This document shows, piece by piece, positions 2,506 through 16,876 of a stretch of DNA of 64,000 bases. The translations under genes and the position numbers were made by a program. Location: positions 539,230 through 603,229 of the forward strand of contig NZ_JASJAP010000001.1 in NCBI RefSeq assembly GCF_030066995.1, written 5' to 3'. This DNA comes from Erythrobacter sp. (lineage in GTDB: Bacteria; Pseudomonadota; Alphaproteobacteria; Sphingomonadales; Sphingomonadaceae). Numbering within the stretch: position 1 is the stretch's first letter; every line of letters begins with the position of its first letter. The notes below the pieces were generated by a model. That model saw only the letters and a list, made by a program, of their open reading frames with translations. It was not told the DNA's origin and made no database searches.

Positions 2506-5500
2506 TCACGCCGCCTCCTTGCGCCTGGCGCGCTGCGCCTTTCTGACGATCCCGCTCAGCCCCTTGGTGAGTTGAAACAGCCCGTTGAGGCGGCTCTGCG
2601 GGTCGCCCCAGGCCCGGTTGATGACAAGCTTCATGTCGGGGCGCAATTTGGCGGTGCCTTTCAGCTTGTCGACATAAGCAACAAGGCCCGGACCATCGGG
2701 GAAGTCATCATTGTGGAACGTCACCAGCGTCCCGCGCGCGCCGACATCGATCTTGGCGATGTTGGCCTCGATCGCCTGATGCTTGATTTCGATCAGGCGG
2801 ACAAGGTTTTGCGTCGGTGCCGGGAGGTCGCCGAACCGGTCGATCATCTCTGCTGCAAGGCTCTCGATTTCCGCCTTGTCCTGCGCCTGGTTGAGGCGGC
2901 GATACAGCGCCATGCGCACCGCAAGATCGGGCACATAGTCCTCGGGGATCATGATCGGCGCGTCGACCGTGATCTGCGGTGAGAATTTGTCCTTGGCTGC
3001 CTCCAGCCCCATCTCGCCCGCCTTGGCCGCCATGATCGCGTCCTCCAGCATCGACTGATAAAGTTCGAAGCCCACTTCACGGATGTGGCCCGATTGCTCG
3101 TCGCCCAGAAGGTTGCCAGCGCCGCGAATGTCGAGATCGTGGCTTGCAAGCTGGAAGCCGGCGCCGAGCGAATCGAGGTCGCCCAGCACCTTGAGGCGCT
3201 TCTCCGCCACTTCGGAAAGTTGCGTGTCGGCGGGAGTGGTCAGATAAGCGTAAGCGCGGATCTTCGAACGGCCCACACGCCCGCGCAACTGGTAGAGCTG
3301 GGCGAGGCCAAAGCGATCGGCGCGGTGGATGATGATCGTGTTGGCGCTCGGAATATCGAGCCCGCTTTCCACGATGGTGGTCGACAGCAGGACGTCGTAT
3401 TTCTTGTCGTAGAACGCGCTCATGCGCTCCTCGACTTCGCCCGCGCCCATTTGGCCGTGGGCGGAGACGGTCTTCACCTCGGGCACGTTCTCGCGCAGCC
3501 ATTCCTCAAGCGGTTCCATGTCGGAAATCCGCGGGACGACGATGAAGCTCTGCCCGCCGCGATGGTGTTCGCGCAGCAGCGCCTCGCGCATCACCATGTC
3601 GTCCCACTCCATCACGTAGGTGCGCACCGCGAGGCGATCGACCGGGGGTGTCTGGATCGTGGAAAGCTCGCGCAGGCCCGTCATCGCCATTTGCAGCGTG
3701 CGCGGTATCGGCGTTGCGGTGAGGGTCAGAATGTGAACATCGGCGCGCAGCTGCTTCAGCTTCTCTTTGTGCGTGACGCCAAAGCGCTGCTCTTCGTCAA
3801 CGATCACTAGGCCGAGATTCTTGAACTCGGTCGATTTCGAGAGGATCGCGTGCGTGCCGATCACAAGATCGACCGTGCCGTTGGCCAGCCCCTCTCGGGT
3901 TTCGGCGGCTTCCCTGGAGGAGACGAGCCGTGAAAGGCGACCGACCTTGAGTGGGAAGCCCGCAAACCGCTCGGCAAAGTTCTGGTAATGCTGGCGCGCG
4001 AGCAGGGTGGTGGGCGCAACGATGGCAACCTGTTGTCCGCCCATCGCGGCGACGAACGCCGCGCGCAAGGCCACTTCGGTCTTACCAAAGCCGACGTCGC
4101 CGCAGACAAGTCGGTCCATCGGCTTGCCGCTTTCCAGATCGCGCAGAACATCGGTGATGGCGGCATCCTGATCGTCGGTCTCCTCCCACGGGAATCGGTC
4201 GACGAACTGATTGAAACTCGCTTCTTCCACTTCGAAAACCGGCGCTTTCTTGAGCGCGCGTTCCGCGGCGACTTTCATCAATTCGCCGGCGATCGCGGTG
4301 ATGCGTTCCTTGAGGCGCGCGCGGCGTTTCTGCCAGGCTTCTCCGCCCAGCCGGTCAAGCGGGACGGCTTCTTCGCTGCTGCCGTAGCGCGAGAGGACGT
4401 CGATGTTCTCCACCGGGATGAAGAGCTTGTCGCCCCCATGGTATTCGAGCGCGACGCAATCGTGCTGGCTCTTGCCCACACTGACGGGATCAAGGCCGAG
4501 ATATTTGCCGATGCCGTGCTCGACATGGACCACCAGGTCGCCTCGCGCGAGCGCTTGCAGCTCGGCGAGGAACGCATCGGAATCCTTGCGCTTCTTTTTG
4601 CGGCGCACCAGCCGGTCACCGAGCACGTCCTGCTCGGTCAGGATTTCAAGGTTGTCGTTGGCAAAGCCCGCTTCGAGCGGCAGGACCATCGCCGCCGTTG
4701 AGCCCTTGGCCGACGCTCCCAACGCTTCCTGCCAGGTGTCGGCCTGGATGGTCGGGCATCCCGCTTCCTCAAGGATCGAGGCGATGCGCTTAGCCGAGCC
4801 TTGCGAATAAGCGGCGAAAAGCGGCTTGTGGCCCGACTTGGCGATGGTCTTGAAATGCTTGGCGGCGGCTTCGTAGACGTTCTCACTGCGCGTGCGCTCG
4901 GGTGCAAAATCGCGCGCCGCCTTGAAACCGAAATCGAGATTGGTGTCGCTTGCGGGGGCGGCGAAGACGCTCGTCCTGTGCGCCCTGGCGGTCGTCAGAG
5001 CGTCGGCGAACTCGCTCTCGCCCAGATACAGCGCCTCGGTGCCCAGCGGGCGGTAGCTTCCGGTTTTCTCACCCGCCAAGGCAGCGCGCTGGTCGTGATA
5101 GTCGCCGATATCGGACAATCGCTCATCGACCGCACCCAACGCCGATTGGTCGATCACCACCACATCGTCCGGGGTAAGGTGATCGAACAGGGACGCCAGA
5201 CGCTCTTCGAAAAGCGGCAGCCAATGCTCCATCCCAGCAAAACGGCGTCCATCGCTCACCGCCTCGTAGAGCGGGTCTTGCGTAGCGCTTGCGCCGAACA
5301 ATTCGCGATAGCGGCTGCGAAAGCGCTTGATCGTTTCTTCATCGAGCAGCGCCTCGGACGCGGGCAGCAGCAGATGATCCGCCAGGCGCCCGGTCGAGCG
5401 CTGGCTGGTCGGATCGAACAGGCGCAGGCTCTCAAGCTCGTCGCCGAAGAAATCGAGCCGGAGGCCTTCGTCGAGCGAGGAGGGGAAGATGTCGACAATC

Positions 5501-6000
5501 GAGCCGCGCACCGCGAACTCGCCGTGATCGACCACGGTGTCGCTGCGCGAATAGCCCTGACGGGTAAGCAGCGCAGCAAGGCTGTCGCGCTCGATGGTCT
5601 TGCCTGGTTTGAAGGCCAGCGCGTTTTCGCGCACCCGAAACGGGGTGAGCACACGCTGAAGCGCGGCGTTGACGGTGGTGACGAGCAATTGCGAACCCGC
5701 CGCCGGACGCTGAAGCTTGAACAACGCAGAAAGGCGCGCGGCGCTGACCGACAAAGCGGGCGAGGCGCGGTCAAAAGGCAGGCAGTCCCACGCCGGAAAC
5801 TCCAGCACCTCGACCTCAGGCGCAAAGAAGCGCGCAGCTTCGGCGGTGGAATGCATGGCCGCTTCGTCAGGCGCTATGAACACCGCCCTCTGTCTGGCGG
5901 CGCGCGCAAGGTCGGCCAGCACCAGCGCCACGGCGCTGCGCGGCAACGAGGATAGCGTCAGCGGCGCGTCAGCAGAAAGGATGCGGGACAGATCAGGCAT
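2506..6000 (-). CDS. mfd: transcription-repair coupling factor Mfd
   Basis: Protein of about 1165 aa with UvrB-homology N-terminus, DEAD/DEAH helicase core (LVCGDVGFGKTEVA, DEEQRFG) and TRCF C-terminus. The start is taken at MPDLSRIL; the track alternative is 6042. Confidence 0.9.
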   Translation of the reverse strand: MPDLSRILSADAPLTLSSLPRSAVALVLADLARAARQRAVFIAPDEAAMHSTAEAARFFAPEVEVLEFPAWDCLPFDRASPALSVSAARLSALFKLQRPAAGSQLLVTTVNAALQRVLTPFRVRENALAFKPGKTIERDSLAALLTRQGYSRSDTVVDHGEFAVRGSIVDIFPSSLDEGLRLDFFGDELESLRLFDPTSQRSTGRLADHLLLPASEALLDEETIKRFRSRYRELFGASATQDPLYEAVSDGRRFAGMEHWLPLFEERLASLFDHLTPDDVVVIDQSALGAVDERLSDIGDYHDQRAALAGEKTGSYRPLGTEALYLGESEFADALTTARAHRTSVFAAPASDTNLDFGFKAARDFAPERTRSENVYEAAAKHFKTIAKSGHKPLFAAYSQGSAKRIASILEEAGCPTIQADTWQEALGASAKGSTAAMVLPLEAGFANDNLEILTEQDVLGDRLVRRKKKRKDSDAFLAELQALARGDLVVHVEHGIGKYLGLDPVSVGKSQHDCVALEYHGGDKLFIPVENIDVLSRYGSSEEAVPLDRLGGEAWQKRRARLKERITAIAGELMKVAAERALKKAPVFEVEEASFNQFVDRFPWEETDDQDAAITDVLRDLESGKPMDRLVCGDVGFGKTEVALRAAFVAAMGGQQVAIVAPTTLLARQHYQNFAERFAGFPLKVGRLSRLVSSREAAETREGLANGTVDLVIGTHAILSKSTEFKNLGLVIVDEEQRFGVTHKEKLKQLRADVHILTLTATPIPRTLQMAMTGLRELSTIQTPPVDRLAVRTYVMEWDDMVMREALLREHHRGGQSFIVVPRISDMEPLEEWLRENVPEVKTVSAHGQMGAGEVEERMSAFYDKKYDVLLSTTIVESGLDIPSANTIIIHRADRFGLAQLYQLRGRVGRSKIRAYAYLTTPADTQLSEVAEKRLKVLGDLDSLGAGFQLASHDLDIRGAGNLLGDEQSGHIREVGFELYQSMLEDAIMAAKAGEMGLEAAKDKFSPQITVDAPIMIPEDYVPDLAVRMALYRRLNQAQDKAEIESLAAEMIDRFGDLPAPTQNLVRLIEIKHQAIEANIAKIDVGARGTLVTFHNDDFPDGPGLVAYVDKLKGTAKLRPDMKLVINRAWGDPQSRLNGLFQLTKGLSGIVRKAQRARRKEAA

Positions 6001-6074
6001 CAATGGGTACTCAAACGGCAAAGGCCCCGCGCGTTCCCGCACGGGGCTGTGAATCGGCGGACATCGCGTGCCGG

Positions 6075-6353
6075 TTAGCGCGGAATATCCACGTAATCGA
6101 GCTTCATCATCGCCTCGATCTGAGCGCCGGCAAACCTCTCGGGCACATTTTGTGTCTTCAGCGCCCAGGCCATGATATCGACGTCGTCCTCGGCGAGCAG
6201 GTCTTCAAACCAATCGAGCTCCCTTTCGCCCCAGGTCGAGGCGTAGGCGTCGAAAAAACCGCCGATCATGTAGTCGGCCTCGCGCGTGCCGCGGTGCCAG
6301 GCGCGGAACTTGGCGCGCGCCAACCGCTCTTCGAAAGTGGGCATATCGGTCAT
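6075..6353 (-). CDS. sdhE: succinate dehydrogenase flavinylation/assembly factor SdhE (DUF339)
   Basis: About 92 aa: MTDMPTFEERLARAKFRAWHRGTREADYMIGGFFD...DWFEDLL, which matches the SdhE/SDHAF2 family. It is divergent from recG. Confidence 0.65.
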   Translation of the reverse strand: MTDMPTFEERLARAKFRAWHRGTREADYMIGGFFDAYASTWGERELDWFEDLLAEDDVDIMAWALKTQNVPERFAGAQIEAMMKLDYVDIPR

Positions 6354-6408
6354 CTGCGGGCAGGTAAGGCACTCGCCCCACGCGTTCAAGCGGGTATAGG
6401 AGAAGCGC

Positions 6409-8472
6409 ATGCGCCCGGCCATTCTCAACCCCCTATTTGCTGACGCGAAGTCGCTAGACGGCGTTGGGCCGAAGCTGGCGAAGCCGCTTGCGAAGCTCGG
6501 GCTGAACACAATCAAGGACATCGCCTACCACCTTCCTGAAAGGTTCGTGAGCCGCCGCGCGATTGCCACTCTCGACGAGGGCGGGGAGGGCGAACAGGTG
6601 ATTGTCGCGCTGACCCCCACCGAACACCGCGCGGCGCGCAATCCGGGGCGCGGACCATACCGCGTTCTGGCGCAGGACGAGGCGGGCAATATCGCTGCGC
6701 TGACGTATTTCGGGCGCGCGTCCTACACCGCGAAGAAGCAGCTCCCCGTGGGTGAGAAGCGCTGGGTCGCGGGCCGTCTCGATCGATATGGCGACATGTT
6801 GCAGATCGTTCACCCGGACCACGTCGAGACGGAAAGCTCTACCCTTATGGGACGTGTGAGTGAACCGGTGTATCGCCTTTCCGAAGGCCTGACCCAGCCG
6901 CGCCTCACCGCATTGGTGGAGCAGTCCCTGGGCCGTCTTCCCGACCTGCCGGAATGGATTGAACCAGGACAGTTCGCCAAGCAGGATTGGCCGATCTGGA
7001 GCCAGGCCCTCAAATCCGCCCATCGCGCCCCCAGCGAAAAAGCGCGCGAGCGGCTGGCTTACGATGAATTGCTGGCCAACAGCCTCGCGCTCCTTTTGGT
7101 CAAGGCGGACAGCCGCCGTCGCAAGGGGCAGGCGCTCGCTGGCGACGGGTCGCTGCGAGCCAAGCTCGACCTGCCGTTCAAGATGACCGGAGCGCAAGAA
7201 CGCTCGATCGCCGAGATCGAAGGCGATCTCCGGCAAGAGGCACCGATGCTGCGGCTGCTTCAAGGCGATGTTGGCGCGGGCAAGACCGTCGTGGCCTTGG
7301 CGGCGATGCTGATCGCTTGCGAGGCCGGCAAACAGGCCGCCTTGCTCGCCCCCACAGAGATTCTCGCGCGCCAGCATTTCGAGACCTTGCGCGCGATGGC
7401 TGCGCCGACCGGCGTTGAGGTTGCGCTGCTGACAGGCCGCGCCAAGGGAAAGGAGCGCGAGAGTATCTTAATGGGCCTGCTCGACGGCTCGATCGACATT
7501 CTCGTGGGCACGCACGCGATCTTTCAGGAGACGGTGAGCTACAAGGATCTGGGGCTCGTAGTGATCGACGAGCAGCACCGCTTTGGCGTCGCGCAGCGTC
7601 TGGCGCTGGCGGGGAAGGGAAAGCGCAGCCCGCACACGCTGGCGATGACCGCGACCCCGATCCCGCGCTCGCTGACGCTGGCGCAATACGGCGAAATGGA
7701 TGTGAGCCGCCTCGATGAACTCCCGCCCGGGCGCCAGGCGATCGACACGCGCGTTGTCGCGCAGGAGCGGATGGAGGACATCGTTGCAGGGGTCGAACGC
7801 CACCTTGCGACCGGCCAGCAGGCGTACTGGGTCTGCCCCATGGTGCGCGACAGCGAAACGGCCGACATCGCGGCCGCCGAAGCGCGCTACGCAGCGCTGA
7901 AAGAGCGATTTGGTGAGGATGTGGTGCTGGTCCACGGGCAGCTTCGCCCCGAGATCAAGGACGCCAATATGGAGCGCTTCGCAAGCGGCGAGGCCAAGCT
8001 TCTTGTGGCAACGACGGTGATCGAGGTTGGCGTTGATGTACCCTCGGCTACGCTGATGGTGATCGAACAGGCCGAACGCTTCGGCCTTGCCCAACTGCAC
8101 CAATTGCGCGGGCGCGTGGGACGCGGCTCGGAGAAATCGGTTTGCCTGTTGCTACGCGGCAATGAACTCTCCGAAACCGGGCGCAAGCGGCTGGCGCTGA
8201 TGCGGGAAACGCAGGACGGCTTTCGCATCGCCGAAGAGGATCTCGAACTGCGCGGCGGCGGCGAGCTTCTCGGCACACGCCAATCGGGCGAAGCCGCGTT
8301 TCGGATCGCGGATCTCGATCAGGTGCAGCGCCTGCTTCCCGTCGCCCACGCCGATGCTCGGTTGCTGATCGACCGCGATGGTGGCTTAACGTCGCAGCGC
8401 GGTGAGGCGGCGCGCGTCCTGCTCTACCTGTTCGAGCGCGATTGGGGCGTGCAATTGTTGCGGGGTGGGTAA
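6409..8472 (+). CDS. recG: ATP-dependent DNA helicase RecG
   Basis: 687 aa with wedge/OB N-terminus, helicase motifs GDVGAGKTVVA, DEQHRFGV and QLRGRVGRG. Confidence 0.9.
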   Translation: MRPAILNPLFADAKSLDGVGPKLAKPLAKLGLNTIKDIAYHLPERFVSRRAIATLDEGGEGEQVIVALTPTEHRAARNPGRGPYRVLAQDEAGNIAALTYFGRASYTAKKQLPVGEKRWVAGRLDRYGDMLQIVHPDHVETESSTLMGRVSEPVYRLSEGLTQPRLTALVEQSLGRLPDLPEWIEPGQFAKQDWPIWSQALKSAHRAPSEKARERLAYDELLANSLALLLVKADSRRRKGQALAGDGSLRAKLDLPFKMTGAQERSIAEIEGDLRQEAPMLRLLQGDVGAGKTVVALAAMLIACEAGKQAALLAPTEILARQHFETLRAMAAPTGVEVALLTGRAKGKERESILMGLLDGSIDILVGTHAIFQETVSYKDLGLVVIDEQHRFGVAQRLALAGKGKRSPHTLAMTATPIPRSLTLAQYGEMDVSRLDELPPGRQAIDTRVVAQERMEDIVAGVERHLATGQQAYWVCPMVRDSETADIAAAEARYAALKERFGEDVVLVHGQLRPEIKDANMERFASGEAKLLVATTVIEVGVDVPSATLMVIEQAERFGLAQLHQLRGRVGRGSEKSVCLLLRGNELSETGRKRLALMRETQDGFRIAEEDLELRGGGELLGTRQSGEAAFRIADLDQVQRLLPVAHADARLLIDRDGGLTSQRGEAARVLLYLFERDWGVQLLRGG

Positions 8473-8477
8473 AGCGC

Positions 8478-9011
8478 TCAGAACCGCGCGTCTACGCCCT
8501 CTGCCCTGAGGCACTCGACCACGCGTTCCACCGCCAGCGAGATGTCAGCCCACGCAGCCTGAAAGTCGCTCTCATCGCCGTAATAGGGATCCTTCACGGC
8601 TTCGCCCGCTCGGCCTGGCACCGCGTCCATCAGCAGCGAAACCCTCGCTTGCGAGCCGCGCGGCTTGCGTACGCGAATTCCCGCAAGATTGGCCGTGTCG
8701 AGCGCAAAGATGTGGCCGAACCGCTCGAAATCCGCGATCTCAAGCTGCCGCCCGCGCGCCGCAGCGATGTCGACGCCGTTGGCGCGCGCGGTGGCGATGG
8801 CGCGTGGATCGGGCGGTTCGCCGATGTGATAAGAGGCGGTGCCCACGGAATCGGCCAGGCAATCGAGCCCGGCGCTCACCGCGACCTTGCGAAAAGCGCC
8901 CTCGGCCATAGGTGAGCGGCAGATATTGCCGAGACACACGAACAGGACAGCGGGGCGAGGTTCCAACGGATGAGTTTCCAGTTGTCGGTGTAGGCGCGTC
9001 TTGTATGGCAC
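8478..9011 (-). CDS. low-molecular-weight protein-tyrosine phosphatase
   Basis: CLGNICRSP (CX5R P-loop) and DPYYG motifs. The ORF extends to ATG 9098 but would then overlap the divergent DUF885 start by 40 nt. An in-frame GTG at 9011 is the more plausible start. Confidence 0.7.
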   Translation of the reverse strand: MPYKTRLHRQLETHPLEPRPAVLFVCLGNICRSPMAEGAFRKVAVSAGLDCLADSVGTASYHIGEPPDPRAIATARANGVDIAAARGRQLEIADFERFGHIFALDTANLAGIRVRKPRGSQARVSLLMDAVPGRAGEAVKDPYYGDESDFQAAWADISLAVERVVECLRAEGVDARF

Positions 9012-9058: not shown

Positions 9059-10870
9059 ATGCGTTTCCTAGCCTGTGTCGCGCTTTTGCTGTCCGCACTA
9101 TCGGTGCCGGTGAAAGCCGGGCCGCTTGAGGACTTCATCGCCTTGCGCGAGGAGGTGTGGCAACAGGCTCTCGACGATGATCCTCTGCTCGCGACCAATG
9201 TGGGTGATCGCCGCGGCGATGGCTCGGTCGGCGATCTCAGCCTTGAAGCCTATGAGCGCCAGGTCGCGCAGACGCGGGCTTTTCTCGCGCGGCTTCAGGC
9301 GATCGATGCAAGCCAGCTGCCCGTCAGCGAACGCATCGATTACGCCGTCGTCAAAAGCGACTTCGAAGACAAGATCGAGGCCTCAGCGCACGACCAGACG
9401 CGCTTTGTGCTGTTTACGACCTATAGCGGGTGGTTTTCCAGCTTTGCCTCGCTGCCCTTTCGCTCGCCGCTTTTCACCGAAGCGGATTATGCGAGCTACC
9501 TTGATCGGCTCGCCGCCTTTCCGGTCTACAATCGCAACGGGATCGAGCGCAGTCGCAAAGCGGTGGACCTCGGGATGACGCAGGCTTGTGGGCCGCTGGA
9601 GGGGTTCGGCCAGAAGATCGCCGCTTTGGTGGTCGAGGATCCAGAAAGCTCGGTTTTCTGGGAGCCTTTCCTGCGCCAACGCCCCACGACGATTTCGTCC
9701 GAGCGGTGGGAGGCCTTGAAAGCCACGGCGCGCAAGCGGATCAGCGACGATGTGACGCCCGCCTACCGCGAGCTGCTCGACTTCTACACGCAGGAATACG
9801 CGCCCAATTGCCGCGATGGCTTGCCCGGTGTCTCGCAAACGCCGGGCGGAGCGGCGTATTACGCGCATCGGGTGAAGAGCTTCACCACCACGCAGCTTAC
9901 GCCGGACGAGGTTCATCGGCTCGGCCTCTCCGAAGTCGCGCGCATTCGTGCGGAAATGGACAAGGTGGCGGCGAGCGCGGGCTATGAAAGCCGCGAGGCC
10001 TATATCGATCATCTGCGCTCCGACCCGGCCTATTACATGACCGACGCCGAGGAATATGTGTCGCACGTCGCCGCGCTCGCCAAGACCATCGACGGGTTTA
10101 TGCCGCAGCTTTTTACGCGGCTGCCGCGCAATCCTTATACGGTAAAGCCGATCCCCGCGGCCAACGCGCCTGGCACCACCACGGCCTATTACGAGCCGGG
10201 CAGCCTCGCGGCGGGGCGTTCGGGCGTTTATCGGATCAACACGACCAAACTCGATCAGCGTCCCTTGTGGGAACTGCCCGCGCTGAGCGCGCACGAGGCG
10301 GTGCCGGGGCACCATCTGCAGATCTCGCTACAGCAGGAGATGGACCTTCATCCGCTTCGCGCCAACACCGCTTATTTTACCGCCTTTGTTGAGGGCTGGG
10401 GGCTTTATTCCGAGCGGCTCGGGATCGAGATGGGTCTCTATGACACGCCTGCCAAGCAGATGGGCCGCCTGTCCTACGAAATGTGGCGCGCGAGCCGCCT
10501 TGTGGTCGACACGGGGATCCATTCGAAGGGCTGGACGAAGGAACAGGCGGTGGACTTCATGCTCGCCAACACCGCGTTGTCGGCGGCCAATATCGACGCC
10601 GAGGTCAACCGGTACATCACCTGGCCGGGTCAGGCGCTGGCCTACAAGGTGGGCGAGCTGAAGATCCGCGACCTGCGCGCGCGGGCGGAAAAGGCTTTGG
10701 GCGCCGATTTTGACCTGCGCGCCTTTCACGACGCGGTGCTGGAAAATGGCTCGGTCCCGCTCAGTGTGCTCGAAGAGCATATGGATGGTTGGATCAGGGC
10801 CGAGCAGATGGCTCTGGATACGAGGGCAGACACCGATGCGAACGTCGATCTTCTAGCAGAGGAAGGCTAG
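9059..10870 (+). CDS. DUF885-family secreted protein (putative metallopeptidase-like)
   Basis: N-terminal signal peptide MRFLACVALLLSALSVPVKA. HEAVPGHHLQ zinc-binding-like motif. The length and composition are typical of DUF885. Confidence 0.65.
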   Translation: MRFLACVALLLSALSVPVKAGPLEDFIALREEVWQQALDDDPLLATNVGDRRGDGSVGDLSLEAYERQVAQTRAFLARLQAIDASQLPVSERIDYAVVKSDFEDKIEASAHDQTRFVLFTTYSGWFSSFASLPFRSPLFTEADYASYLDRLAAFPVYNRNGIERSRKAVDLGMTQACGPLEGFGQKIAALVVEDPESSVFWEPFLRQRPTTISSERWEALKATARKRISDDVTPAYRELLDFYTQEYAPNCRDGLPGVSQTPGGAAYYAHRVKSFTTTQLTPDEVHRLGLSEVARIRAEMDKVAASAGYESREAYIDHLRSDPAYYMTDAEEYVSHVAALAKTIDGFMPQLFTRLPRNPYTVKPIPAANAPGTTTAYYEPGSLAAGRSGVYRINTTKLDQRPLWELPALSAHEAVPGHHLQISLQQEMDLHPLRANTAYFTAFVEGWGLYSERLGIEMGLYDTPAKQMGRLSYEMWRASRLVVDTGIHSKGWTKEQAVDFMLANTALSAANIDAEVNRYITWPGQALAYKVGELKIRDLRARAEKALGADFDLRAFHDAVLENGSVPLSVLEEHMDGWIRAEQMALDTRADTDANVDLLAEEG

Positions 10871-12246
10871 GCTGCCCTTTCGACCGGCATGGGCGTGGTC
10901 GATGCAAGGATTTCTTCGGTCATGCGCCGGATGTTGACCTTCGCTTTGAGCCGCGTTCCCAACAGCGCCATGCCCGAGACCTTGCGCTGCACGAACAGCG
11001 TCTCGATCGGCGGGAAGGCCCAGGTGTCCTTGTCCTGCGCGATGGCAAAGCCCTCTTCGCGCAGCAGGTAGACAAATCCGCGATCGGCAAAGTCGAACGG
11101 TTTGTCCTCGCGCATCTGGTCGATGACGATATCGATCATCTTGTTGACGCTTTGAGGGTGCTTTTCCGCCACGATCGGCATCATGAAGCCCGCTTCGATT
11201 GTCGCCTCGCGCACTTCGTCACGATTGCCCTCAAGTCCGGCCTTGAGCATGCCCCGGTACCCGTTGGAGACCGCCGGATCGACCTCGCGGCAGGCCCCGA
11301 AATCGAGCAGGATGAGCTCGCCGGTCGCCGGGCGATAGCGGAAGTTGGCAAAGTTGGGATCGGTCTGCATCACGCCGAAGTCGAACAACTCGCGGCTGAC
11401 GAGCTCCAGCAGGTTGCCGAAGATTTCGTCACGCCGCTCGGCGGGCTCATCCTCCAGCCTTTCGATCGGAACGCCTTCTTCAAAGCTCATCGCGAGGATC
11501 GAGCCGCGCGTGAGGTCTTCGTGCAGCTGCGGCACGACAAATCCGGGCGTGTCGGCCAGTTGCTCTCGATAAAGCTTCATCTGCGCGCCTTCGCGCTGAT
11601 AGTCCGCCTCTTCATGAAGCTGGCGCTTGGCCGCATCCAGCAGCTTGTCCATTTCCAGTTCGGGCGGCGCAAAGCCCGCAACCTTGAGCAGGGTCATGAC
11701 GTTGTCGACATCGCTGTCGATGCTCTTTGCGACACCGGGATACTGCACCTTGATCGCCAATTCCTGGCCATCGCGGGTCATCGCCTTGTGCACTTGGCCA
11801 ATGCTGGCAGCGGCGATGGGGCGGGGGTTGAACCACTTGAACCGCTTGCGCCAGTCGCTGCCCCATTCCTCCCTCAGCACCATATCGAGTTGCTTGGTGG
11901 GCATGAAATTGGCCTGATCGCGCAGGCGAGCCAGGATGTCGGAGAGTTCGGGCGGCAGAAAATCACCGGAATCGAGGCTGATCATCTGCCCCATCTTCAT
12001 CGCCGCGCCGCGCAGGTGCGAGAGCTTGTCGGTCATCCGACGAACATTGCCGGGGGTGAGGATCAGGTCGCGCGTGGAGATGCGCTCCCCACTGGTCAGA
12101 CGCCGCGCGCCTTCGGCGGCCATGCCCCCCGCCACGCCGCCCACCAGGCGGCCGAACGTGCCGAAGCGCGCCAGGCGCCCCGATGGCACGGCGCGCTCGC
12201 GCGATGCGTCGCCGGGGCCGAAGGTGTCATCCTTGTCGTGAGCCAC
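10867..12246 (-). CDS. ABC1/UbiB-family atypical kinase (AarF domain)
   Basis: Motifs AAASIGQVH, LAIKVQYPG, QTDPNFANF and LLDFG match the UbiB/ABC1 kinase-like fold. Confidence 0.8.
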   Translation of the reverse strand: MAHDKDDTFGPGDASRERAVPSGRLARFGTFGRLVGGVAGGMAAEGARRLTSGERISTRDLILTPGNVRRMTDKLSHLRGAAMKMGQMISLDSGDFLPPELSDILARLRDQANFMPTKQLDMVLREEWGSDWRKRFKWFNPRPIAAASIGQVHKAMTRDGQELAIKVQYPGVAKSIDSDVDNVMTLLKVAGFAPPELEMDKLLDAAKRQLHEEADYQREGAQMKLYREQLADTPGFVVPQLHEDLTRGSILAMSFEEGVPIERLEDEPAERRDEIFGNLLELVSRELFDFGVMQTDPNFANFRYRPATGELILLDFGACREVDPAVSNGYRGMLKAGLEGNRDEVREATIEAGFMMPIVAEKHPQSVNKMIDIVIDQMREDKPFDFADRGFVYLLREEGFAIAQDKDTWAFPPIETLFVQRKVSGMALLGTRLKAKVNIRRMTEEILASTTPMPVERAA

Positions 12247-12416: not shown

Positions 12417-12938
12417 ATGAACTCGCACACTTCGCTTACCCCCGCAGCGCGCGCGCTTGGCTATGCCGGGCTTCTGCCGCAAATCGCCTGTCTGGCGCTG
12501 GTCGGGATCGACAATCCCTATCGCTTTACCGCCGTCTTCATGGGCTTTGTCTATCCAGCGGTCATCTTCAGCTTCTTGGGCGGTGTCTGGTGGGGGCAGG
12601 CCGTATCCGAGCGGGACGGGGCGAGCGGATCGGTTTACGTGATTTCCGTCCTTCCCAGCCTCATAGCCGCGGCGCTGTTCTTGCCCTACCTCGAAGGCTG
12701 GGAATGGCCGGGCCCCGCCATGCTCTATCTGGGCGCCTTCCTCGCTCTCAGCCCCATGGTGGACCGTGCGCTCGGCTACGCGGCGGCGGACTTCATGCGC
12801 CTGCGCTGGCATCTTTCGCTCGGGCTGGGCGGTTTGACCATTGCGCTGGGTTTTGTGTCGATGTGGGCCATGGAGCCCAAAGTGCCCGAGCAGCCGGTCA
12901 ACCCGCACTCCACAATGGACACAGGCGCAGTCACCTAG
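12417..12938 (+). CDS. DUF3429-like small integral membrane protein
   Basis: 173 aa, four or five predicted TM helices, and no catalytic motifs. Confidence 0.45.
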   Translation: MNSHTSLTPAARALGYAGLLPQIACLALVGIDNPYRFTAVFMGFVYPAVIFSFLGGVWWGQAVSERDGASGSVYVISVLPSLIAAALFLPYLEGWEWPGPAMLYLGAFLALSPMVDRALGYAAADFMRLRWHLSLGLGGLTIALGFVSMWAMEPKVPEQPVNPHSTMDTGAVT

Positions 12939-13012
12939 CGCGGCCCATGAGAAATTGGCGGCCCGTGAGAAAAGGCCAAGTGCGGGGCATTGAAGAGCGG
13001 CGCTCCAAGCCC

Positions 13013-13032
13013 TAATGTTACACGGTATCATT
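13013..13032. promoter_or_regulatory. Zur-box-like dyad TAATGTTAcacggTATCATT
   Basis: The half-sites ATGTTA-N5-TATCAT lie 24 nt upstream of the COG0523 start at 13056. This compares with the canonical Zur core ATGTTA-N5-TAACAT, with one mismatch. The element is AT-rich within a GC-rich genome. Confidence 0.3.
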
Positions 13033-13055
13033 CAGCCCTGTTTCCGGAGCTCTCC

Positions 13056-14312
13056 ATGAACGCCCCTGCCTTACCCAACAACGCGCTTCCCAAAGACGCG
13101 CGCCTTCCCGTCACTGTCTTGTCCGGCTTTCTGGGCGCGGGCAAAACCACGCTTCTCAATCACATCCTCACCAATCGCGAGGGCAAGCGCGTGGCGGTGA
13201 TCGTCAACGACATGTCCGAGGTGAACATCGACGCCGATCTCGTGCGCGGCGGCGAAGCGGCGCTGTCGCGCTCGGAAGAAACGCTGGTCGAGATGACCAA
13301 TGGCTGCATCTGCTGCACGCTGCGCGACGACCTTCTGAAGGAAGTGCGAGCGCTCGCCGAGGATGGTCGCTTCGATTATCTCGTGATCGAGAGCACCGGA
13401 ATTTCCGAGCCGCTGCCGGTGGCCGCGACCTTCTCTTTCCGCGACGAGGACGGGGAGAGTCTGGGCGATGTGGCGCAGCTCGATACCATGGTGACCGTGG
13501 TCGACGCGGTGAACCTGCTGGCGGATTATTCGAGCAGCGATCTGCTCTCCGCGCGCGGAGAGACTGCGGGCGAGGGCGACGATCGCAGCCTGGTGAGCCT
13601 GCTTGTTGAACAGATCGAGTTTGCCGACGTCGTGATCGTCAACAAGGCAAAGGATGTCTCGCCCGAGCAGCTCGCGATGGTGAAGAAGGTGGTGGCCTCC
13701 CTCAATGGCGATGCGAAGATCATCGAGGCCGATCACAGCAAGGTCGAACTCGATGAGGTAATCGGCACCGGCCTGTACGACGAAGAGCAGGCCGAGCAGC
13801 ACCCGCTGTGGCTCAAGGAGCTTTACGACTTCGCAAGCCACCGCCCCGAAAGCGAGGAATACGGGGTTGAGAGCTTCGTCTTCCGCGCGCGCAAACCGTT
13901 CGATCCAGCCAAGCTCTATGGCTTCCTTACCAGCGACAACCTCGACAAGGTCATCCGCGCCAAGGGCCATTTCTGGATGGCGACTCGCCCCGATTTCCTC
14001 GCTGAGCTGGCGATTGCCGGGACGCAAAAGAGTGTGAGTCGAATGGGGCGCTGGTGGGCCGCTGTACCCAAGAACCGCTGGCCCGACGATGGCACCTTTG
14101 AGGAATTCGTGATGAAGCATTGGGACCAGACCTGGGGCGATCGCCGTCAGGAAATGGTTTTCATCGGCATCGATATGGATCAGGACAAGATCTGCGCCGC
14201 GCTCGAAGCCTGCCTCGTCGACGACAACGAATTCGTGCCCGAAAACTGGGAGCTTCTCGAAGATCCCTTCCCGGTCTGGGGTGAGCCGACGCCCATGACC
14301 GAAGACGCCTGA
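13056..14312 (+). CDS. COG0523 / CobW-family G3E GTPase (metallochaperone), paralog 1 with no His-rich tract
   Basis: Walker [13 protein letters not shown], CxCC motif GCICCT, and a CobW_C-type C-terminal domain. The start is taken at MNAPALPNN; the track start is 12990. Confidence 0.8.
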
Positions 14313-14425
14313 GCGCTCCTGGCGGCGAGGCCGCGCCCGCCGCCTATTCGGCGCGCGTCGTTAGATGTTGCCATGGCGCGCCGGGAGGCCCTAACACGCG
14401 CCCAGTGAGAGAGGGATCCAAAAGC

Positions 14426-15553
14426 ATGGCAACACTTACCTACCTGACGACCACGCATTTCGACTTTGGTGCGCTCGAAACGCTGCCCAAGATGCTGGCG
14501 CAGGAGGGGATCACCAAGCCGTTGATCGCTACCGACGCGGGGTTGGTGGCTGCGGGCGTGGTGCAGACGGTGCTCGACGCGATCGGGCCGGATTTCGAGC
14601 CGCTGGTTTACGACGGCACGCCCGGCAACCCGACCGAAGAGGCGGTGAAGGACGCGCTCAAGCTCTACACTGAAAACGGGTGCGACGGGATCGTGGCGCT
14701 GGGCGGGGGATCGTCGATGGATCTCGGCAAGGCGGTCGGCCTTCTCGCGGTGAGCGGCGGCCCGCTGGAGCAGTACGATCCGCTGGTTGGCGGTGCGAAG
14801 CGGATCAAGGGTGTTGCCCCCCTCATCGCGGTCCCGACAACCTCGGGCACGGGCAGCGAAGTCTCGATCGGCTTTGTCATTATCCTTGAAGACGGGCGCA
14901 AGATGACTTTTGCGAGCCCGCACTTCATCCCGAAGGTCGCGATTTGCGATCCGGAGCTTACGATGGGTCTGCCCGCGGGCATGACCGCTGCGACCGGCAT
15001 GGACGCGATCACGCATTGCATCGAGGCGTTCCTTACCCCTCAAGTGAACCCGCCGGCTGAAGGCATCGCGCTCGATGGGCTGCGCCGGGGCTGGGAATAT
15101 CTGCCGCGCGCCGTCAAGGACGGTTCGGATCGCGATGCGCGCTGGCACATGATGATGTGCTCGACCGAGGGCGCGCTGGCTTTCGTCAAAGGGCTGGGCG
15201 CCGTGCACGCCATGAGCCACGCCGCGGGCCGGATTCGCCGCTTGAACCCCCACCACGGAACCTTGAACGCGGTCTTCCTGCCCGCCGTGCTGCGCTTCAA
15301 TCAGGACGTGTGCGAGGACAAATATGTCCGTCTGCGCGAAGCAATCGGTCTGCCGCCGGGCGCTGACCTTGCCGAGGCTGTTGAGGGCATGAACGCCAGG
15401 ATCGCAATCCCGTCGGGGCTCGCTGCCATGGGGATCGAGGAAAGCGACATCCCGGAGATGGTCGAATACGCGCAACAAGACCTCGCCGCACGCTCGAACC
15501 CGCGCCGTGCGTCGGCGCAGGACTACGAAGCGATGATCAGATCCTCGCTGTAA
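14426..15553 (+). CDS. iron-containing (group III) alcohol dehydrogenase
   Basis: The Fe-ADH fold signatures GGGSSMD, TTSGTGSEV, the HCIEAF region and the H...H metal ligands (AVHAMSHAAG) are present. The start is at MATLTY. Confidence 0.85.
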   Translation: MATLTYLTTTHFDFGALETLPKMLAQEGITKPLIATDAGLVAAGVVQTVLDAIGPDFEPLVYDGTPGNPTEEAVKDALKLYTENGCDGIVALGGGSSMDLGKAVGLLAVSGGPLEQYDPLVGGAKRIKGVAPLIAVPTTSGTGSEVSIGFVIILEDGRKMTFASPHFIPKVAICDPELTMGLPAGMTAATGMDAITHCIEAFLTPQVNPPAEGIALDGLRRGWEYLPRAVKDGSDRDARWHMMMCSTEGALAFVKGLGAVHAMSHAAGRIRRLNPHHGTLNAVFLPAVLRFNQDVCEDKYVRLREAIGLPPGADLAEAVEGMNARIAIPSGLAAMGIEESDIPEMVEYAQQDLAARSNPRRASAQDYEAMIRSSL

Positions 15554-15573
15554 GAATGGTTAACGCGCTTTCT

Positions 15574-15589
15574 TTGTGAGCGCTCACAA
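15574..15589. promoter_or_regulatory. perfect 16-bp palindrome TTGTGAGCGCTCACAA (candidate operator)
   Basis: It sits 15 nt upstream of the ATG at 15605 and is immediately followed by the GAGGAG RBS. The sequence equals the core of an idealised symmetric LacI-type operator. Confidence 0.35.
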
Positions 15590-15604
15590 GAGGAGTGTCG
15601 AGCC

Positions 15605-16747
15605 ATGAGCCGTAAACGCATTCCCGTTACGCTTCTCACCGGCTTTCTGGGGGCGGGCAAGACGACTTTGCTTAACAAGCTAATCCAGGAACCAGAGCTT
15701 TCCAAAGCTCTGGTAATCATTAACGAGTTTGGGTCCGTCGGTCTTGATCACCACCTGATCGCGCGCAGCAACGAGGATGACACGGTCGTCGAAATGTCGA
15801 GCGGCTGTCTGTGCTGCACGATCAAGGGCGATCTGCAGAAGACGCTCAAAGAAGCGCCCGAGACCTTCGCTCGGCCAGATGATGAGGGGGGCAAGCCGAC
15901 CTTCGACCGGATCATCATCGAAACGACCGGCCTTGCTGACCCCGCGCCGATTGTCCACACGGTGATGGCCGATCAACACCTGATCGACACTTACGAACTT
16001 GCCGAGGTCATCACATTGGTCGATGGCGTCAACGGCGATGGCACGCTCGACGCGCAGACCGAAGCGCTCAAGCAGGCCGCGGTCGCCGACACGCTGCTTA
16101 TCAGCAAGACCGATATCGCCGATGCGGGCGCCCTGGCGACGCTGACCAAGCGGCTGCGCGCGATCAACCCGGCGGCGCGGATCGCTTCGGTGGCGGATCA
16201 GGCCGGCTCGCTGATGGACCTGTTTGGCGGGGCGCGTTTCAACCCTGAATTGAAGGGCGAACAGGTTCTCAACTGGCTTCACGAAGAAGCCTATGGCGCC
16301 GGGCACGACCATCACCATGACCATCACCATGACCACTCCCATGATGATGGGCATGAACATGAGCACAGGCACGATCACCATCATGACGTAAACCGCCACG
16401 ACGATCGGATCGCGTCGGTTTGCATGACCATCGATGAACCGCTGTCGGCCGAGGTGTTCGACGAGTGGTTCGGGCTCCTGACCACGCTCAAAGGCGTCAA
16501 CATGCTGCGCGTGAAGGGGCTCATAAACCTCAAGGGGATGGACAAGCCGCTGGTCATCCATGGCGTGCAACACATCTGGCACCCTCCCGCGATGCTGCCC
16601 GAATGGCCGTCCGAGGATCATCGTTCGCGCGTCGTTTTCATCATGCGCGACATGGAGCAAAGCGACCTTGAAGCGATGCTCGATTTCGTCAAGCAACGCC
16701 ACGACAGCGCGCGGATCGACCGGCCCGAGGGCGCGCTGCCCGTCTGA
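15605..16747 (+). CDS. COG0523 G3E GTPase with His-rich metal-binding insert (ZigA/Zng1-like zinc chaperone), paralog 2
   Basis: Walker [13 protein letters not shown], CxCC motif GCLCCT, and the His-rich tract GHDHHHDHHHDHSHDDGHEHEHRHDHHHD encoded at about 16309-16385. Confidence 0.85.
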   Translation: MSRKRIPVTLLTGFLGAGKTTLLNKLIQEPELSKALVIINEFGSVGLDHHLIARSNEDDTVVEMSSGCLCCTIKGDLQKTLKEAPETFARPDDEGGKPTFDRIIIETTGLADPAPIVHTVMADQHLIDTYELAEVITLVDGVNGDGTLDAQTEALKQAAVADTLLISKTDIADAGALATLTKRLRAINPAARIASVADQAGSLMDLFGGARFNPELKGEQVLNWLHEEAYGAGHDHHHDHHHDHSHDDGHEHEHRHDHHHDVNRHDDRIASVCMTIDEPLSAEVFDEWFGLLTTLKGVNMLRVKGLINLKGMDKPLVIHGVQHIWHPPAMLPEWPSEDHRSRVVFIMRDMEQSDLEAMLDFVKQRHDSARIDRPEGALPV

Positions 16748-16799: not shown

Positions 16800-16876
16800 T
16801 GGTCGGGGAGAGAGGATTCGAACCTCCGGCCCCTGCCTCCCGAAGACAGTGCTCTACCAGGCTGAGCTACTCCCCG
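16800..16876 (-). tRNA. tRNA-Pro (anticodon CGG)
   Basis: Hand-folded cloverleaf. Acceptor CGGGGAG/CUCCCCG, U8 A9, D-arm GCUC...GAGC, anticodon stem CUGUC/GGCAG with loop UUCGGGA, T-arm GGAGG-UUCGAAU-CCUCU. The 3' CCA is encoded. Confidence 0.85.

Follow-up and report, generated by a model that had tools for sequence, protein, structure and literature searches.

Genes and other features of the locus

The window analysed here, a 64-kb stretch of Erythrobacter DNA, contains three co-oriented genes: one for a ZigA-like zinc-metallochaperone GTPase of the COG0523 family, one for a group-III (“iron-containing”) alcohol dehydrogenase (ADH), and one for a second COG0523 GTPase carrying a histidine- and aspartate-rich tract (Table 1). 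The nearest genomes are those of Erythrobacter and other Erythrobacteraceae, and the ADH shares 90% identity with its counterpart in Erythrobacter sp. CP121323. A sequence-only reading of the same DNA had described these genes, together with an inverted repeat before the first and a palindrome before the third, and every one of these sequence features is present where it was placed. The locus may well be a Zur-controlled zinc-starvation cluster that has recruited a zinc-independent dehydrogenase: a conserved and specific Zur-like motif lies upstream of the first gene, and in other genomes the same ADH subfamily is repeatedly linked to COG0523 genes and Zur-like boxes.

Table 1. Positions of genes and sequence features in and next to the zigA-ADH-COG0523 locus (window coordinates).
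Feature	Position	Strand	Remarks
Putative -35 hexamer TTGAAG, zigA promoter	12990..12995	+	Predicted; 17 nt upstream of TAATGT
Probable Zur box TAATGTTACACGGTATCATTC, imperfect inverted repeat	13013..13033	.	Overlaps putative -10 hexamer TAATGT; 23 nt before zigA start codon
ZigA-like COG0523 zinc-metallochaperone GTPase, 418 aa, without His tract	13056..14312	+	Pfam cobW + CobW_C, NCBIfam
Putative internal ADH promoter TTGCCA, 17 nt, CTAACA	14368..14396	+	Predicted; window copy read by eye
Ribosome-binding region GAGAGAGGGAT of ADH	14407..14417	+	Conserved as GAGAGGGAT across orthologues
Group-III (“iron-containing”) ADH, predicted 4-hydroxybutyrate dehydrogenase, 375 aa	14426..15553	+	Pfam PF00465 (Fe-ADH) + PF25137 (ADH_Fe_C)
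Perfect 16-bp palindrome TTGTGAGCGCTCACAA	15574..15589	.	Between ADH stop and GAGGAG ribosome-binding site; 51-nt ADH-COG0523 spacer
Ribosome-binding region GAGGAGTG of second COG0523 gene	15590..15597	+	Read from sequence
Second COG0523 GTPase, 380 aa, YjiA-like G-domain, His/Asp-rich interdomain linker	15605..16747	+	Pfam cobW + CobW_C
His/Asp-rich tract GHDHHHDHHHDHSHDDGHEHEHRHDHHHD	16301..16387	+	Residues 233-261; 16 His + 7 Asp in 29 residues
tRNA-Pro(CGG)	16800..16876	-	ARAGORN; downstream cluster boundary

Both GTPases belong to COG0523, as had been proposed: each combines the cobW and CobW_C domains (PF02492 and PF07683) with a Walker A motif of the form GxxGxGKT, the CxCC motif expected between G2 and G3, and an RxK motif in the C-terminal domain (the RxK criterion and the linker motif of ZigA-type proteins are described in PMC13001444). 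The first, which lacks a His tract as the sequence-only reading had stated, is ZigA-like: it covers the full NCBIfam ZigA equivalog model (NF038288, positions 1-390 of 390) at 590.4 bits, 10 bits short of the cutoff of 600 for a certified ZigA equivalog. In addition to CxCC it has PESEEY at residue 264, a linker motif of the PETEEY type, and RAK in its C-terminal domain. It resembles Acinetobacter baumannii ZigA in its near-threshold match to the model, in its CxCC, PE(T/S)EEY and RxK motifs and in having a conserved Zur-like box upstream. A PETEEY-type linker motif and Zur-dependent expression, the latter only predicted here, mark ZigA and cluster 1 of the COG0523 sequence similarity network (SSN). 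It differs from A. baumannii ZigA in its slightly subthreshold score and in having an ADH gene as neighbour; the A. baumannii gene lies beside the histidine-utilisation locus.

The second GTPase is nearest to YjiA, both by top NCBIfam match (PRK11537, 176 bits against a cutoff of 361) and by best match in the PDB (1nij), but it is a member of neither the YjiA nor the CobW equivalog family (TIGR02475, 118 bits, cutoff 332), and it is not a ZigA either. Its CxCC and RxK motifs read GCLCC and RVK. The His/Asp tract, 29 residues long where 30 had been claimed, lies between the G-domain and the C-terminal domain, a position kept in the orthologues of seven related loci (L001-L004, L014, L027 and L039; related loci are designated by such numbers below), with variable length. 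A YjiA-related COG0523 protein with an internal His-rich region is known in Cupriavidus metallidurans: this protein, CobW2, has been proposed as a zinc store (PMC11340326). The likeness, a YjiA-like G-domain followed by a His-rich linker before the C-terminal domain, is one of description rather than of direct sequence comparison; zinc storage is putative, and the tract varies in length among the orthologues of the Erythrobacter protein.

Members of the group-III ADH fold bind either iron or zinc. The enzyme encoded between the two GTPase genes has the Fe-ADH N-terminal and C-terminal domains, a GGGS NAD motif at residue 93, and four metal ligands (D193, H197, H261 and H277, a His3Asp set) that align with those of Zymomonas mobilis ADH2. 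It scores 517 bits with the NCBIfam model for 4-hydroxybutyrate dehydrogenase (NF058672, cutoff 500), and at this equivalog level it is predicted to be such an enzyme. This likens it to Cupriavidus necator Gbd and the clostridial 4-hydroxybutyrate dehydrogenases, and it is 54-57% identical to enzymes of Cupriavidus and Ralstonia. The C. necator homologue differs in context: in the annotated record it adjoins genes for a coenzyme A (CoA)-transferase, an acyl-CoA dehydrogenase and an acyl-CoA synthetase, and neither a COG0523 gene nor a Zur box was found near the homologue in the two annotated records inspected, those of C. necator and Ralstonia solanacearum. Indirect support for a metal other than zinc comes from a clostridial 4-hydroxybutyrate dehydrogenase in this superfamily: Fe2+ or Mn2+ activates it, and its activity falls further when Zn2+ is added (PMC13495136). 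The sequence-only reading had called the Erythrobacter enzyme a “non-zinc (iron) ADH”: the Fe-ADH family assignment stands, while the use of iron was overstated.

The ADH gene is probably also expressed on its own. In 14 of 31 loci of the Erythrobacteraceae clade, whatever the upstream gene, a loose promoter pattern (TTGCCA or TTGCAA, 17 nt, CAAACA or CTAACA) recurs at some 54-65 nt from the start of ADH, on its 5' side. A scan for consensus sigma-70 promoters gave zero matches, and the promoter positions in Table 1 are taken from cross-species conservation only. No terminator-like site was found between the three genes, the three matches in the scan all falling within coding sequence and at chance level.

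A probable Zur box upstream of zigA

The dyad ATGTTA-N5-TATCAT at 13015-13031, which the sequence-only reading had described as Zur-like, is more than a chance occurrence. A Zur matrix trained on nine orthologous zigA-upstream sites from other species has a single match in the window, the dyad itself, at 28.2 bits, with the next best position at 11.7. In 931 kb of related loci 34 positions score 19 bits or more with it, including the nine training sites, where Markov simulations give 0-1. An independent set of 80 separately fetched metagenomic zigA loci, 78 of them scored, gave a match no more than 200 nt upstream of zigA in 34/78, and in a control stretch inside the gene in 0/78. Near-identical sites precede zigA in at least 11 relatives (L003, L004, L011, L013, L016, L017, L022, L024-L026 and L036).

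The motif keeps company with canonical zinc-limitation genes. Matches outside the training sites precede other COG0523 genes, a ZIP transporter gene (in Hyphomonas loci), folE2 (L022) and TonB-dependent receptor genes; in L029 the motif separates zigA from a divergently oriented gene of the Fur family, for which Zur is the top NCBIfam match; and the neighbours of zigA in the wider set include DUF1826, ZnuA and Zur-like genes. The half-sites resemble the Paracoccus denitrificans Zur motif GTAAYRTAATAACAT, verified by electrophoretic mobility shift assay (PMC5387054). The site at 13013-13033 thus has the properties by which a Zur box may be recognised in sequence, namely an AT-rich inverted repeat with half-sites of the ATGTTAT/ATAACAT type, overlap with a promoter, and recurrence before genes for zinc uptake or zinc sparing, and it is probably a Zur box.

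The spacing of -35 hexamer, -10 hexamer and box is also found in L003, L004 and L017, the zigA promoter itself scoring below the threshold of the consensus scanner. If these hexamers are correctly assigned, their overlap with the box would be a plausible instance of the classical repression layout. A simple motif scan, a weak test, found no Fur-type regulator with the HxH...CxxC pattern in the 64-kb window.

The matrix also drew attention to another gene pair. Zur-like boxes of 20-25 bits (GGATGATACA..TATATCATGG) lie directly upstream of a gene for a MerC-like small membrane protein in four loci (L024 at 8669, L025 at 11319, L026 at 8831 and L028 at 11397), followed in three of the four by an asparaginase/glutaminase gene; to our knowledge this pair is not a recognised member of the Zur regulon.

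The 16-bp palindrome

The perfect palindrome between the ADH gene and the second GTPase gene had been put forward as a second operator, and it has features that would suit one: its dyad symmetry is perfect, with CG at the centre, it sits just before the ribosome-binding site within the 51-nt spacer, and as RNA it would form a local hairpin of -7.4 kcal/mol that reaches the AAGAG of that site. A genuine operator (for example, for a dimer of the LacI/GalR type) or a regulatory RNA hairpin could in principle place the second COG0523 gene under separate control. Perfect 16-bp palindromes are, however, about as frequent in the window as expected (three, against a mean of 2.5 in first-order Markov simulations, 88% of which contain at least one). 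No copy occurs in 160 related loci with two mismatches allowed, nor a second one in the window with three; in L001-L004, the nearest four relatives in which ADH adjoins COG0523 in the same way, only 14-20 nt separate the genes and the palindrome is missing. There is no promoter-like site beside it, and a motif scan of the window, again a weak test, found no LacI-type helix-turn-helix regulator.

With neither orthologous conservation, nor recurrence in a regulon, nor a nearby cognate regulator, separate control through this element is very improbable, and the earlier claim is not supported. As a Zur site the palindrome was rejected for its negative matrix score, and as a conserved operator or repeat element for its lack of copies. 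It is at most a small RNA hairpin adjoining the Shine-Dalgarno sequence. That it matches the core of the symmetric lac operator is presumably a coincidence. No perfect palindrome in the window is longer than one of 18 bp (CTCTCCGCGCGCGGAGAG, 13545-13562) within the coding sequence of zigA, an illustration that such palindromes arise by chance in this GC-rich DNA. Setting the 16-bp palindrome aside removes a false lead from the regulatory picture.

Linkage of the dehydrogenase to zinc-starvation genes in other genomes

In a set of 80 species-level genomes with ADH orthologues at 53-90% identity, a COG0523 gene is adjacent to the ADH gene, or one gene removed, at 22 of the 80 ADH loci. The pair zigA-ADH is found in 13 loci of Erythrobacteraceae type, in at least five different flanking contexts; ADH is followed by the His-rich COG0523 gene in L001-L004, and the order is reversed, COG0523-ADH, in L014 and L027. 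The three-gene order is syntenic in relatives, as the sequence-only reading required: the complete zigA-ADH-COG0523 order of the window is reproduced in L003 and L004, and in a Reyranella locus (L039, ADH 63% identical) the order is COG0523-DUF1826-zigA-ADH-zur-COG0523. Viewed in full, the Reyranella cluster (2669-8728, all on one strand) consists of a triple overlapping Zur-like box, a YjiA-like COG0523 gene, DUF1826, zigA, a small open reading frame (ORF), ADH, a Zur-like Fur-family gene and a His-rich COG0523 gene.

A second, more distant lineage shows the linkage in another form. In the gammaproteobacterial ADH clade, whose upstream regions were inspected by eye, 8 of 10 loci have a box of the GTTATAACAT type before ADH itself, at a distance of 20-130 nt; a TonB receptor or COG0523 gene running the other way often shares it. 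In a close relative of the window, L002, an intact Zur-like box is retained at about 5769-5930 and is followed by an in-frame deletion remnant of zigA, in which the N-terminal codons run straight into the C-terminal ...TPMPEGA*; the ADH promoter element comes next. L001 has lost box and zigA alike. These loci show that zigA was lost recently while ADH-COG0523 was kept.

The linkage has clear limits. No COG0523 link was found in other ADH clades (Hyphomonadaceae, Caulobacterales), and the idea that this ADH is a general partner of ZigA was rejected, since it occurs at one of 80 zigA loci. The association with zinc-starvation genes is recurrent but lineage-restricted; within these bounds a family-wide link between the dehydrogenase and zinc looks real.

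Other genes also recur near this ADH subfamily. One is a small ORF, conserved, about 77-82 aa long with ...RAH as its C-terminus, and without a family in Pfam or NCBIfam. It accompanies the subfamily in at least eight loci, both Zur-linked and unlinked (L013 5735-5983, L016 5735-5983, L029 5745-5978 and L039 5741-5986; also L009, L036 and L104, immediately upstream of ADH, and L079, immediately downstream), and is absent from the window. In three gammaproteobacterial metagenome-assembled genomes (L059, L069 and L075) a COG0523 gene followed by a WD40 beta-propeller gene lies upstream of ADH or near it. A TonB-dependent receptor gene is divergent from ADH in L059 and L069, and in the related L058, L061 and L065 a PepSY_TM gene accompanies the receptor gene.

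A possible role in zinc starvation

The account toward which we lean, with some reserve, is that of a Zur-controlled zinc-starvation cluster into which a zinc-independent dehydrogenase has been recruited. When zinc is replete, Zn-Zur would bind the inverted repeat at 13013-13033 and zigA would be off, because the site overlaps the -10 region of its promoter; with no terminator between the three genes, read-through into ADH and the second COG0523 gene would cease too. When zinc is scarce the promoter would be derepressed and two proteins made: the zinc-metallochaperone GTPase ZigA, with its CxCC motif, and the YjiA-like COG0523 protein with the His-rich linker, which would likely serve as a zinc buffer or delivery protein; transcription of ADH would rise above the basal level set by its own internal promoter. 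The dehydrogenase, an omega-hydroxyacid or 4-hydroxybutyrate enzyme with a single-metal His3Asp site, would most likely be zinc-independent (using Fe2+ or Mn2+). Its subfamily, ancestrally catabolic, may have been recruited into the zinc-limitation response by several lineages, where it could keep NAD-linked alcohol/aldehyde oxidoreduction going without drawing on zinc, much as ADH4 serves yeast. The 16-bp palindrome would stand outside this regulation. Direct control by a Zur box, as the gammaproteobacterial ADH seems to have it, suits an enzyme independent of zinc better than one in need of it.

Zur-regulated COG0523 clusters with zinc-independent paralogues occur in Bacillus subtilis and Pseudomonas aeruginosa. 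More generally, Zur regulons commonly contain COG0523 genes and zinc-free enzyme paralogues (PMC6103462; PMC2770081), multiple COG0523 genes in a Zur regulon are already on record (two copies of yciC listed for A. tumefaciens; PMC6103462), and three CobW paralogues have been studied in C. metallidurans (PMC11340326). The locus thus falls into a known class, in which a Zur box, COG0523 genes and an enzyme form one cluster; it shares with the clusters described in Haas 2009 and a 2018 review of Zur regulons a Zur box before a COG0523 gene, an enzyme gene, more than one COG0523 paralogue, and predicted derepression in low zinc. It differs from them in its enzyme, a group-III ADH, which was not found listed in either source, in the promoter-like element belonging to that enzyme's gene, and in that no zinc-dependent counterpart was identified in the window. 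As a recurrent member of such clusters the group-III ADH appears undescribed: no account of a Zur- or COG0523-linked group-III ADH in bacteria was found in the literature searched, the word “dehydrogenase” is absent from the main text of Haas 2009, and the cases that were found either concern zinc-dependent ADHs under repression (S. aureus ZinS/adh; adhA and adhP in a review table) or are unrelated. The novelty that the sequence-only reading saw in the arrangement as a whole is to this extent confined to the ADH.

There is a parallel in eukaryotes. In yeast the Fe-type ADH4 is induced via Zap1 while the zinc enzymes ADH1 and ADH3 are repressed, and S. pombe adh4 likewise is a group-III ADH under a zinc-deficiency regulator (PMC2535606). 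The parallel has its differences: activation by Zap1 in yeast against repression by Zur in bacteria, and ethanol as the yeast substrate where a 4-hydroxybutyrate-type compound is probable here. The metal used is debated even for yeast Adh4.

Several observations weigh against this account. The metal preference of the ADH cannot be read from its sequence, the His3Asp set being common to Fe- and Zn-binding members, so that of the zinc-sparing role suggested earlier the repeated linkage to zinc-starvation genes holds and the “non-zinc” part goes further than the sequence does. No zinc-dependent enzyme that the ADH might replace was identified in the 64-kb window. The promoter-like element of the ADH gene is conserved and has no Zur-like site, which suggests that ADH expression in Erythrobacteraceae need not depend on zinc. 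The betaproteobacterial homologues, lying as they do in CoA-transferase/acyl-CoA-dehydrogenase clusters, suggest that the role was catabolic to begin with. The sites behind the Zur matrix are orthologous ones of other species, not the znuABC and zur promoters of this genome. The linkage itself is uneven: L001 has ADH-COG0523 without a Zur box, L014 and L027 have COG0523-ADH without a match to the matrix, about 13 of the 31 ADH loci of the Erythrobacteraceae clade have no COG0523 neighbour, and the single zigA locus with an ADH is L104.

Some of these points would be expected if there were no functional link at all, and the ADH were an ordinary catabolic 4-hydroxybutyrate or omega-hydroxyacid dehydrogenase with its own promoter, in a variable spot where zinc-starvation genes also happen to land. 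The sequence-only reading had allowed that grouping with a housekeeping pathway would tell against it, and this is partly what is seen: the enzyme matches 4-hydroxybutyrate dehydrogenase at the equivalog level and is a relative of catabolic enzymes, with homologues in clusters of CoA-transferase, acyl-CoA-dehydrogenase and synthetase genes, beside acyl-CoA dehydrogenase genes (L006, L019) or beside a polyhydroxybutyrate depolymerase gene (Hyphomonas loci). Its own promoter-like element, the patchiness of COG0523 genes in the clade and the repeated loss of zigA point the same way. The frequency of the association is hard to reconcile with this: a genome has thousands of genes and, by rough estimate, only a handful for COG0523 proteins, so that adjacency at 22 of 80 loci, in at least five flanking contexts and two distant clades, is far above chance. 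Further difficulties are the Zur-like boxes directly upstream of ADH, in L002 as well as in 8 of the 10 gammaproteobacterial loci, and the Reyranella ADH lying between zigA and zur. Pure coincidence of ADH and zinc genes is unlikely in view of this recurrence across independent contexts and clades, and the absence of any functional link is likewise rather unlikely.

Another possibility is that the ADH is a client, metallated by one or both of the COG0523 GTPases, or shielded by them from mis-metallation, when metal supply is disturbed. The ADH-COG0523 pair survives several rearrangements and involves two COG0523 subtypes, ZigA-type and YjiA-type; it is kept without a detectable Zur box in L001, L014 and L027; and a dehydrogenase with its own promoter beside a starvation-induced chaperone fits a constitutive enzyme that needs help only under stress. 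Precedents for such a COG0523 chaperone and its metalloenzyme client are ZNG1 with METAP1 and Nha3 with the nitrile hydratase of Fe type. That hydratase is inactive unless Nha3 is present, and Nha3 has the PETEEY-type motif in common with ZigA (PMC13001444; PMC2770081); ZigA-like proteins fall in the same SSN cluster 1. A 2025 chemoproteomic study concluded that any ZigA client would probably have a Cys-free metal site (PMC12458113), and the ADH site is His3Asp. Nha3, however, clusters exclusively with its client, whereas ADH lies beside zigA in only one of 80 zigA loci, the link here being one of gene neighbourhood; orthologues of the second COG0523 gene stand beside zigA without ADH in L084-L086, L095 and L153, so that the ADH has neither GTPase to itself; L001, L002 and L028 have kept ADH after deletion of zigA; and a Zur box before the gammaproteobacterial ADH itself would be odd for a zinc-requiring client. 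A chaperone-client module in this broad sense is rather unlikely, and it is still less likely that the ZigA-like GTPase, the His-rich COG0523 protein or both truly metallate the His3Asp ADH as their client, or protect it as a partner from zinc.

The recruited, zinc-independent dehydrogenase remains the account that we favour, and the distinction matters beyond this locus. Zur-regulated COG0523 GTPases are widespread, and reviews and preprints of 2024-2026 still say that no bacterial one has a known metalloenzyme client, ZigA included. The ADH subfamily would offer one of two things: a zinc-sparing exchange of enzymes not seen before, corresponding in bacteria to yeast ADH4, or a concrete candidate for such a client. 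Were the latter true, it would be the first client of a Zur-regulated bacterial COG0523 protein to be defined by gene neighbourhood, and a tractable enzyme-chaperone pair with a Cys-free metal site. Both ideas are testable by standard genetics and metal analysis in culturable Erythrobacter.

Surroundings of the locus

Upstream of the cluster lie a gene for a DUF3429 membrane protein (12417-12938, + strand) and one for an ABC1/UbiB-type atypical kinase (10867-12246, - strand). Downstream are thyA and then a set of branched-chain 2-oxoacid dehydrogenase genes (E1-alpha, E1-beta and E2-like), their identities read from the translations. The flanks abc1-DUF3429 ... thyA are kept in L001-L004 and L017, which suggests that the zinc genes occupy a stable chromosomal slot.

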